The position numbers were made by a program, and so were the translations under genes. Shown one piece after another: positions 14,143-15,528 of a stretch of 64,000 bases of DNA. Position 1 is the first letter of the stretch; each line of letters opens with the position of its first letter. The notes under the pieces were generated by a model. That model made no database searches, was not told the origin of the DNA, and saw only the letters and a program-made list of their open reading frames with translations. Location of the stretch: NCBI GenBank assembly GCA_021776095.1, contig JAJFGO010000044.1, positions 39,080-103,079 on the forward strand, in the 5' to 3' direction. The DNA is from Kiloniellaceae bacterium. Its GTDB lineage: Bacteria; Pseudomonadota; Alphaproteobacteria; Kiloniellales; J153.

Positions 14143-15528
14143 TCATCCCCGGATTACCCGACGCGCGGCGCGGCAGGGCGGATCGGCAGGGCCAAGGTCC
14201 CGATGCCCGATCTCAGCCGGCCGCCCGCCGGCCCGCAACCAGACGCCAAGCCGTTCGGCGACCAGGACCGAGCGATGGCGGCCGCCGGTGCAACCGACAG
14301 CGATGGTCAGATAGCTTTTGCCCTCGGCCTCGTAGCGCGGCAGCAAGGGCGCGAGCATGTCGATCAGGCGGCCAAAAAAGCCCTCGAATTCAGGGTCTTG
14401 CTCGATATATGCGGCGACCCTGGGGTCCCGTCCGTCGAGCGGGCGTAGGGTCGGGTCGTAGTGCGGGTTGGCGAGAAAGCGCACATCGAAAACCAGATCG
14501 GCCTCGCGCGGCAGGCCATGGCGAAACGAAAAGGAGGTCACGAAAACCGCCATCCCAGTGCCTTCCCCCAGGCCGAAGTGGCCGGCCATTACCCGGCCCA
14601 GCTCCGCTGGCGGCAGGGCCGAGGTATCGAGTACCAAATCGGCATGGGCCTTGAGCGGCGCGATCAGGGCGCGCTCCGCGGCGATGCCGTCCGCCACCTG
14701 ACGGTCGCGCGCCAGGGGGTGGCGTCGGCGGGTCTCGGTGAAGCGGCGCGCCAGCACGTCGTCCTGACAATCCAGAATCAACAGGGTCACCGCCAGATCC
14801 GGGTTGGCGGAGAGGGCCCGCAATTGCCGAACCACGTTTTGCGCGGCGAAGCGGCGGGTGCGGGTATCGACCCCAACCGCCAGCGGCCGCACCGCCCCAG
14901 CCTCCGACAGAACCGCGTCGAGCAAGCTAAGCGGCAGGTTGTCGATCGTTTCGTAGCCCATATCCTCCAGGGCCTTGAGGGCAGTCGAGTGCCCGGCGCC
15001 GGACATGCCGGTGACCAAGATCACACGCCGGCGCTCACCGTCCGGGCTGCCGGCGCTGACATCTTGAGCGGCGGCATCTTGAGCAGACGGGTTTTGAACG
15101 GCCGGCGCCAGGGCCAGGCGCAGCTTGGCCGGGGTCGAGGCCTCGAAGGGATCGAGGGCGATACGCGGTAGCGCGACCCCCAGAATCGTCTCCTCTGCCG
15201 GTTCCGGTAGGCGCTCCACCGTATCGCCCGGCACCAAATCGACGATCAGCGCCACGCTGACCTCCGCCAGGCGGGGCGCCTCGACGATACCCAGCCCGCG
15301 GGCTTCGATCCGCCCGGCCAGAACCGCGGGCGCCCGCGCCACGATCCGCGCCGGCGCCCGCGCGCTTAGCTCGCATTGATCGTCGGCGACCAGACGGGCG
15401 CCCTGGTCGATCAGGCGCAAGGCCAAATCCGACTTGCCCGACCCGGAGGGTCCGCGCAACAGGACGCCGCACGGTCCGCCTGGCCCCTCGAGCGCCACGC
15501 AGGTCGCATGAATCAGCTGTTTGTCCAT
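14143..15528 (-). CDS. single ORF encoding short HPr kinase/phosphorylase domain (aa 1-~140) fused in frame to RNase adapter RapZ (aa ~169-461)
   Basis: The N-terminal part is [28 protein letters not shown]...[10 protein letters not shown], the HprK C-terminal catalytic domain typical of alphaproteobacteria. After a low-complexity linker ([20 protein letters not shown]) comes [33 protein letters not shown]...[10 protein letters not shown], a full RapZ/YhbJ. No stop codon lies between the two. An in-frame GTG at 15024 could also start a separate RapZ. Confidence 0.8.
   Translation of the reverse strand: [461 protein letters not shown]

Follow-up and report, generated by a model that had tools for sequence, protein, structure and literature searches.

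The stretch of DNA analyzed here, called the window below, comprises 64,000 nucleotides of a Kiloniellaceae bacterium assembly (GCA_021776095.1, contig JAJFGO010000044.1). Its minus strand carries a single open reading frame (ORF) of 461 codons in which a kinase of the HPr kinase/phosphorylase (HprK/P) type is joined through a linker to a protein of the RapZ family. The list of ORFs and the raw sequence agreed that the 461 encoded amino acids (aa) are interrupted by no internal stop codon and no change of frame, as an earlier reading made from the letters alone (the sequence-only reading) had stated. The parts of the ORF, and the evidence on which each was delimited, are as follows.

14143-15528, minus strand: HprK-linker-RapZ fusion ORF, a single 461-codon frame with its ATG at 15528 and its stop codon at 14143-14145
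15094-15528, minus strand: HprK/P catalytic module, aa 1-145 (Pfam, TIGR00679 and Foldseek; predicted local distance difference test score, pLDDT, about 90)
15430-15453, minus strand: HprK Walker A motif GPSGSGKS, aa 26-33 (read from the sequence)
15283-15309, minus strand: HprK/P signature IEARGLGIV, aa 74-82 (consensus from PMC2937029)
15031-15093, minus strand: disordered, low-complexity linker, aa 146-166 (pLDDT of the AlphaFold2 model and alignment of homologues)
14575-15030, minus strand: RapZ N-terminal P-loop (kinase-like) domain, aa 167-318 (Pfam RapZ-like_N and Foldseek)
15022-15024, minus strand: in-frame GTG, the codon of V169, with GGTGAG upstream, proposed as an internal start
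14986-15009, minus strand: degenerate RapZ Walker A motif GMSGAGHS, aa 174-181, with His for the canonical Lys (read from the sequence)
14191-14553, minus strand: RapZ C-terminal domain, aa 326-446 (Pfam PF22740 and Foldseek)
14269-14295, minus strand: GCTGGRHRS motif, aa 412-420, holding the equivalents of the E. coli RapZ pocket residues T248, G249, H252 and R253
14143-14190, minus strand: unconserved C-terminal tail, aa 447-461, and stop codon, without a basic patch of the K281-R282-K283 type; pLDDT below 50 at aa 449-461

Profile searches and PDB searches agreed that a complete HprK of the alphaproteobacterial type is covalently joined to a complete RapZ, and every motif quoted in support of that claim (at aa 26-33, 73-82, 170-199 and 412-421) was found in place. 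Pfam Hpr_kinase_C matched aa 4-87 with 65.5 bits (cutoff 33.3). The full-length HprK equivalog TIGR00679 remained below its cutoff (72.1 against 240 bits) and was matched at model positions 133-260 of 300 only; this partial coverage identifies the module as the truncated alphaproteobacterial HprK type and not as canonical full-length HprK/P. The RapZ part gave matches far above cutoff to both of its Pfam domains, RapZ-like_N (PF03668; aa 169-318, 128 bits) and PF22740, the RapZ C-terminal domain (aa 326-445, 151 bits), and the NCBIfam RapZ equivalog NF003828 was matched from end to end (aa 169-445, model positions 1-278 of 278; 320.9 bits, cutoff 244). Among PDB sequences, aa 170-446 aligned to residues 4-280 of E. 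coli RapZ 5o5o (E=6e-60) and aa 20-132 to the catalytic domain of Lactobacillus casei HprK/P (E=1e-12).

An error that deleted a stop codon or shifted the frame between two separate genes could also have produced such an ORF: the two genes are separate in most relatives, a single wrong base would be sufficient and the window apparently comes from an assembly of the metagenome type. This explanation was rejected on several observations. An independent Logan assembly (run SRR15505512) codes for exactly the same protein, and a fused gene 91% identical to that of the window (L082), with an uninterrupted frame and the same downstream genes, was present in an unrelated sediment metagenome (PRJEB19235). 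A search covering 5.8 billion proteins, with clusters at 90% identity, returned at least 120 cluster representatives carrying the fusion with all three Pfam domains (57-100% identity, 93-100% query coverage, 432-498 aa). In the same search the closest named matches belonged to Kiloniellaceae and Kiloniellales (59-67% identity), and Pelagibius sp. CAU 1746 encodes the fusion on a contig of 3.56 Mb. When clusters at 50% identity were considered, seven full-length fused representatives and several fragments spanning the junction headed the list, and the remaining matches were RapZ-only proteins of about 290 aa. Named homologues of the fusion carry only the label 'RNase adapter RapZ'. Fused genes were also found in 13 GTDB species, isolate and complete genomes among them (see below), and the linker retains no start codon of the rapZ type. 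The chance that the fusion is an artefact is therefore, in our estimate, vanishingly small, and the check for sequencing errors suggested in the sequence-only reading has in effect been answered by these at least 120 clusters and at least 13 species.

The locus was then located by tblastn in GTDB species genomes, and the best 80 of 313 confirmed loci were analyzed. Since tblastn spans bridge adjacent genes, each locus was read through in the frame of HprK to see whether a stop codon intervenes. Taking full-length tblastn spans as fusions had to be rejected, as this test left 13 of 68 loci as true single ORFs. Among the best 80 loci 13 were thus fused, 55 had two genes and 12 had rapZ with no upstream match to hprK; the best species representative was 58% identical to the fusion of the window. 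The fused genomes are the following.

Algihabitans albus (L005) and two Algihabitans metagenome-assembled genomes (MAGs)
Tistlia consotensis and one Tistlia MAG
Two Kiloniellales MAGs
'Rhodospirillaceae' ECT2AJA-110-B and N.6G
Three large 'Rhodospirillales' MAGs, two of them complete chromosomes
One unclassified alphaproteobacterial MAG (L012, isolate Co_bin.5)

Two-gene loci include those of Dongia, Terasakiella, Caenispirillum, Pararhodospirillum, Stellaceae, Roseovarius and Amaricoccus. The expectation that relatives keep hprK and rapZ as separate neighbours thus held for 55 of the 68 loci, in which a stop codon lies at the junction, but not as a general rule, since the stop codon is absent from the other 13. 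Judged from these genomes, the fusion is an inherited architecture of Kiloniellales, Pelagibius, Algihabitans, Tistlia and unnamed 'Rhodospirillales' lineages of marine and soil origin, and we consider it very probable that it is real, conserved and bifunctional. Six of the loci carry names from outside the Alphaproteobacteria, five of them 'Candidatus Marinimicrobia' (L010, L036, L046, L061, L078) and one 'Comamonadaceae' (L031). All six show the typical alphaproteobacterial chvG-hprK-rapZ-EIIA-Man-HPr locus, and mis-binning or mislabelling is the likely reason for these names.

The motif residues of the HprK module are retained throughout the family. The Walker A motif of HprK/P, GxSGxGKS, binds ATP, pyrophosphate or inorganic phosphate (Pi) and reads 155-GDSGVGKS-162 in L. 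casei (PMC2937029); in the 120 fusion proteins compared, G26, G29, G31, K32, S33 and D34 are invariant, and so is the pair D49-D50. The consensus of the HprK/P signature is (I,L,M)E(I,V)RG(I,L,M,V)G(I,V)(I,L,M) (PMC2937029). The signature of the window fits it at eight of nine positions, the sole departure being an Ala for Ile or Val at the third; Val occupies this position in 106 and Ala in 14 of the 120 fusions, and E75, R77, G78 and G80 do not vary. The RapZ module is conserved in the same way at its ligand pocket, which in E. coli RapZ is formed by H190, T248, G249, H252 and R253 (PMC5737377). The equivalents T414, G415, H418 and R419 are invariant, and H356, corresponding to H190, is present in 118 of 120. 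Comparison with the 91% identical relative gave 27 synonymous and 11 nonsynonymous codon differences in HprK and 62 and 18, respectively, in RapZ; in the linker there were 4 synonymous and 6 nonsynonymous differences together with an in-frame indel of 6 nt. By this codon comparison both modules are under purifying selection.

An AlphaFold2 model of the fusion, built on the 120 homologues, had a mean pLDDT of 87 and consisted of two well-folded parts on either side of the linker, where residues 148-163 had a pLDDT below 50. Foldseek matched the RapZ C-terminal domain to that of E. coli RapZ (5o5s) with a template modelling (TM) score of 0.94 and a root-mean-square deviation of 1.0 A, the RapZ N-terminal domain to the N-terminal domain of Mycobacterium tuberculosis Rv1421 (9m1v) with a TM-score of 0.86, and the HprK module to the HprK/P proteins of L. 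casei and Coxiella (1kkl, 2qmh, 3tqf) with TM-scores of 0.62-0.74. The last HprK helix (132-145) is separated from the first RapZ strand (167-174) by 21 residues. The linker is of low complexity, as the sequence-only reading had it, but shorter than the approximately 28 residues given there, given that the string quoted was of 23 residues and the modelled segment is of 21. Among the 120 homologues it ranges from 18 to 69 aa (median 32), with an abundance of Ala, Pro, Arg and Gly, and shows no conserved sequence save for a basic RR or PR immediately before the first RapZ strand. A fixed interface between the two modules within one monomer was considered as well, and the model showed none (predicted TM-score, pTM, 0.52; disordered linker).

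The RapZ module departs from the textbook protein in two places. At the position of the Walker A Lys the 120 fusions have Arg in 79 cases, His in 40, the window among them, Asn in one and Lys in none. The same position holds Lys in 49, Arg in 37 and L, M, H, I, Q or V in 17 of 103 free-standing RapZ representatives of the alphaproteobacterial type, and Lys in 19, Arg in 28, Met in 7 and Ile in one of the unfused GTDB loci. Since the Lys is lost in free-standing RapZ as well, its loss is not specific to the fusion and this residue does not universally define RapZ in these relatives; the pattern suggests that the N-terminal domain serves as a binding module rather than as an NTPase in much of the family. 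The second departure concerns RNA binding. In E. coli RapZ the binding of small RNA (sRNA) needs K270 and K281-R282-K283 (PMC5737377). R436 is present as the equivalent of K270, and the positions of K281-R282-K283 (447-449) read P-A-D and are not conserved among the fused proteins. The sRNAs GlmY and GlmZ have been reported for Enterobacteriaceae only, where they coincide with the predicted RNA-binding domain (PMC4152352), and no match to GlmY, GlmZ or any tRNA, rRNA, riboswitch or sRNA family was above the Rfam gathering threshold on either strand of the 64-kb window. Because both the Walker A Lys and the enterobacterial RNA-binding tail are lost, an RNase-adaptor role of the E. coli type appears doubtful for the fused RapZ, as does the description of this part as an RNA-adaptor module in the sequence-only reading. 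By analogy with characterized relatives, a role in ligand binding would be more plausible.

The fusion lies within a group of genes on the same strand, whose other members are given below.

17337-18077, minus strand: ChvI-type response regulator of the OmpR family (Pfam Response_reg and Trans_reg_C)
15580-17274, minus strand: ChvG-type sensor histidine kinase (Pfam Sensor_TM1, Stimulus_sens_1, HAMP, HisKA and HATPase_c)
13683-14087, minus strand: EIIA-Man-like protein (Pfam EIIA-man, 104.6 bits), 55 nt downstream of the fusion ORF
13408-13686, minus strand: HPr/NPr-like phosphocarrier, the presumed substrate (Pfam PTS-HPr, 95.2 bits)
11550-13433, minus strand: Enzyme I (EI), the phosphoenolpyruvate (PEP)-protein phosphotransferase (three PEP-utiliser Pfam domains)

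These Pfam assignments bear out the location given in the sequence-only reading, downstream of chvG-chvI and upstream of EIIA-Man, HPr and EI. The chvG-like gene directly precedes the fusion ORF with a gap of 51 nt and keeps this position in the fused loci, and the translated HPr contains both its His motif, GLHARAA, and its Ser motif, GSSIMG. The order chvI-chvG-fusion-EIIA-Man-HPr(-EI) on one strand is conserved in relatives; a chvI-chvG-hprK-manX-ptsO locus has been described for Alphaproteobacteria (PMC2937029, PMC13104625).

Several details of this neighbourhood were recorded in passing. The stop codon of EIIA-Man overlaps the start of HPr by 4 nt (13683-13686), and the 3' end of HPr overlaps the longest frame of EI by 26 nt (13408-13433), or by about 11 nt if the ATG of the Logan gene call is used. 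EI has an N-terminal extension of about 45 residues, basic and rich in Lys, Ala and Pro (MKTKKPAAKTKSAKGAARALKTGPAKSKARP..., ~13284-13433), ahead of PEP-utilisers_N. Basic EI tails of variable length occur also in loci of the fused clade and in Dongia, and the EI proteins of Stellaceae and Terasakiella begin nearly at the PEP-utilisers_N domain. No HPr or EI was detected by tblastn downstream of the fusion in four loci of large 'Rhodospirillales' (L008, L009, L015, L022), which have the shortest linkers, and in L022 EIIA-Man was likewise undetected; the operon of this subgroup is thus unlike that of the window. The EIIA-Man match of Algihabitans albus (L005, 5478-5711) is partial with 41% identity, against about 77% over the full length in close relatives, and this gene may be degraded or replaced. 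In L085, discussed below, a GGDEF-EAL protein lies downstream in place of EI.

The junctions of the unfused loci indicate how the fusion could have arisen. The hprK stop codon overlaps the rapZ start in 34 of the 55 loci, 22 of these being four-base overlaps of the ATGA or GTGA type and nine being one-base overlaps; in 14 further loci the gap is 0-15 nt, so that 48 of 55 junctions are tightly coupled. In several loci (L010, L017, L018, L039) rapZ begins in the hprK frame, one codon past the hprK stop. Judging by the junction sequences, such overlaps and short gaps imply translational coupling of hprK and rapZ across many alphaproteobacterial lineages. At so tight a junction the substitution of a stop codon or an indel of one base suffices for fusion, and a one-base change at a translationally coupled junction is the most likely origin of the gene. 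In the fused genes the variable linker stands in for the former HprK tail and the N-terminal extension of RapZ. Neighbour-joining trees grouped all GTDB fusions together, adjoining unfused loci of the Stellaceae type, with bootstrap values for the fusion clade of 45 of 200 for the concatenated modules, 5 of 200 for RapZ alone and 1 of 200 for HprK alone. Five divergent fused representatives (P0122, P0123, P0125, P0126, P0137) were placed outside this clade. Two of them, P0137 (L085, 44% identity) and P0122 (L086, 58% identity), lie in the same pckA/chvI-chvG-fusion-EIIA-Man-HPr context; at least the P0137 fusion may be of separate origin.

Comparison with known systems shows what is shared and what is new in this protein. 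The separate hprK and rapZ (yhbJ) genes of alphaproteobacterial chvI-chvG-hprK-(rapZ)-manX-ptsO loci have the same order, families and flanks (43-61% identity), whereas the fusion of the window has no stop codon, rapZ start or frame change between the modules. E. coli RapZ (5o5o, 5o5s, 8b0i), the RNase E adaptor for GlmZ and GlmY, is homologous over its full length and shares the pocket residues. It differs in lacking the N-terminal HprK, in its intact Walker A motif (GRSGSGKS) where the fusion has His for Lys, in K281-R282-K283 where the fusion has P-A-D, and in its genomic context, which is the rpoN operon in E. coli and a chvGI/phosphotransferase system (PTS) locus here. Like the HprK/P of Brucella melitensis (PMC2937029), the HprK part of the fusion is a bare catalytic core with Walker A and the signature, and both lack the N-terminal domain of about 130 aa and the C-terminal phosphorylase region. 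Both genes lie downstream of the BvrS/ChvG sensor kinase and upstream of EIIA-Man and NPr, but the Brucella enzyme is free-standing in a locus without rapZ, whereas the protein of the window continues into RapZ and has Ala in its signature. The two-domain, hexameric HprK/P of Firmicutes (L. casei, 1jb1/1kkl) has the same fold and motifs (TM-scores 0.62-0.66, 27-31% identity); its N-terminal domain and C-terminal phosphorylase region are absent from the fusion, which has RapZ at its C-terminus instead. The HprK-HprK protein of Fusobacterium nucleatum and the multiphosphoryl transfer proteins (EI/HPr/EIIA) are likewise covalent joins of neighbouring PTS modules (PMC2405797).

Adjacent genes that are coupled commonly become fused in evolution. 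The sequences of the present fusion are already public by the hundred as RapZ, and the fusion as such is unsurprising. It is undescribed in the literature that we searched, subscription-only papers being outside its scope. A survey of 222 genomes published in 2008 reports the Fusobacterium tandem as the one departure from a single-polypeptide HprK and lists no HprK-RapZ join (PMC2405797), and a 2026 review of the nitrogen-related PTS (PTS-Ntr) does not mention it (PMC13104625).

We consider it probable that the fusion is a two-module signalling protein in which a kinase is combined with a RapZ module; the latter may act as a ligand sensor or scaffold. Two sets of published data serve as models. 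The truncated HprK/P of Brucella, cotranscribed with bvrR/bvrS, phosphorylates Ser61 of NPr and slows phosphotransfer to the EIIA proteins (PMC2937029). On the RapZ side, the E. coli protein is a glucosamine-6-phosphate receptor, in which the C-terminal domain binds the ligand, and by contacting a two-component system directly it stimulates that system (PMC7073468), and the N-terminal domain of Rv1421 binds UDP-N-acetylglucosamine (PMC11229554). From these we infer kinase activity on the neighbouring HPr, ligand binding by RapZ and an action of RapZ on HprK. By analogy with the Brucella enzyme, the HprK module would phosphorylate the conserved Ser of the HPr/NPr encoded two genes downstream, and phosphoryl transfer through the HPr His, from EI towards the EIIA proteins, would be slowed as a result. 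HprK is joined by a flexible, unconserved tether, about 20 residues long, to a RapZ that retains its C-terminal pocket for a phospho-ligand, and the ligand, as for E. coli RapZ and Rv1421, might be an envelope precursor of the sugar-phosphate or UDP-sugar type. In the mechanism that we prefer, RapZ would sense the ligand on behalf of the kinase or serve as its scaffold; HPr-Ser phosphorylation, and with it the output linked to PTS-Ntr and ChvGI, would follow the status of envelope precursors, and the fusion would hard-wire the 1:1 co-production of HprK and RapZ that coupling gives to unfused relatives. The direction of control, from a RapZ sensor to the HprK kinase, is offered more tentatively and is rather unlikely on what is now known.

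A number of observations weigh against this two-module signalling protein. Brucella HprK/P functions without RapZ and is by itself regulated by fructose 1,6-bisphosphate and Pi (PMC2937029). HprK/P is hexameric and E. coli RapZ tetrameric (PMC5737377), an oligomeric mismatch on one chain. The AlphaFold2 model gives the modules neither a fixed mutual orientation nor confident packing (pTM 0.52), and on the model's evidence the unconstrained linker together with the lack of predicted packing fits independent modules equally well. A single origin of the fusion lacks statistical support (bootstrap 45 of 200), divergent fusions being placed elsewhere, and the literature searched holds no report of experimental activity of the fusion or of an HprK-RapZ interaction in any organism. 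The main rival reading takes the fusion as neutral, an accident of tightly packed, co-translated genes after which the modules went on acting independently, with HPr as the target of HprK and another target for RapZ, the tether being tolerated without adding a function. One altered base suffices to join the genes, the linker is unconserved in length and sequence and shows relaxed selection, a confident interface between the domains is not predicted and separate genes suffice in most relatives, 55 of 68 loci. Against such an accident, the fusion persists in many lineages down to about 44-57% identity with no reversion and with the linker indels kept in frame; coupling at 48 of the 55 unfused loci, moreover, argues for stoichiometric co-function. 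We regard neutrality as unlikely. We grant a similarly small chance to a broader proposal of the 'Rosetta stone' kind, according to which HprK and RapZ form an obligate complex wherever their genes adjoin, in Alphaproteobacteria and Betaproteobacteria, and RapZ is the missing regulator of the truncated HprK. Under that proposal the RapZ pocket would sense an amino-sugar or UDP-sugar precursor and set the level of Ser-phosphorylation of HPr/NPr, and RapZ might also supply the dephosphorylation of P-Ser-HPr that alphaproteobacterial HprK lacks.

In another rival reading, suggested in the sequence-only reading, the locus would make two products, the 461-aa fusion and a free RapZ of about 293 aa initiated at the in-frame GTG at 15024. 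This codon exists, with GGTGAG at a suitable distance upstream. Its duplex with the anti-Shine-Dalgarno (anti-SD) sequence is calculated at -10.0 kcal/mol, which ranks it among the best 1.3% of the 1002 start-like codons that lie inside long ORFs of the window and exceeds the value for the fusion ORF's own start (-5.3), and a product beginning at V169 would share the starting point of E. coli RapZ. The start is, however, not conserved in fused orthologues. One fused locus (L007) has no in-frame ATG, GTG or TTG within 120 nt and another (L009) has none nearer than 72 nt; an SD-like motif is absent from the junction in most fused loci, and Met occurs within the last 25 linker residues in only 10 of 120 homologues. 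Even in the 91% identical L082 a synonymous change from GGT to GGC breaks the GGTGAG, and the duplex falls from -10.0 to -6.1 kcal/mol. Internal GTGs at codons 92 and 213 of the fusion ORF score equally, which shows that such sites arise by chance in a GC-rich gene, and the other GTGs shortly before VTG simply encode Val in the first beta-strand, GTG being the preferred codon for it, and are found equally in unfused genes. A second, free product is thus highly improbable, and the suggestion that the locus makes one finds no backing in the comparison of fused genes.

RapZ/YhbJ/YvcJ proteins are widespread, and to our knowledge their function is understood only in Enterobacteriaceae, together with GlmY/GlmZ. 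Genes of the rapZ family adjoin PTS genes (ptsN, npr, hprK, crh) in distant phyla, an association long unexplained. We likewise know of no regulatory domain in the alphaproteobacterial type of HprK, a bare catalytic core without the phosphorylase region. The label 'RNase adapter RapZ' hides the kinase domain of the fusion, and the genomes that carry it consequently seem to lack hprK. A conserved fusion, taken together with near-universal coupling in unfused relatives, provides genomic evidence that HprK and RapZ act together, and the fusion offers a single-polypeptide system, present in cultured strains such as those of Algihabitans albus and Tistlia consotensis, in which metabolite control of HPr-Ser phosphorylation by RapZ can be tested. 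If the proposal of an obligate HprK-RapZ complex were true, it would point to an ancestral, RNA-independent role of RapZ that ties the supply of envelope precursors to the regulatory PTS and to ChvGI.

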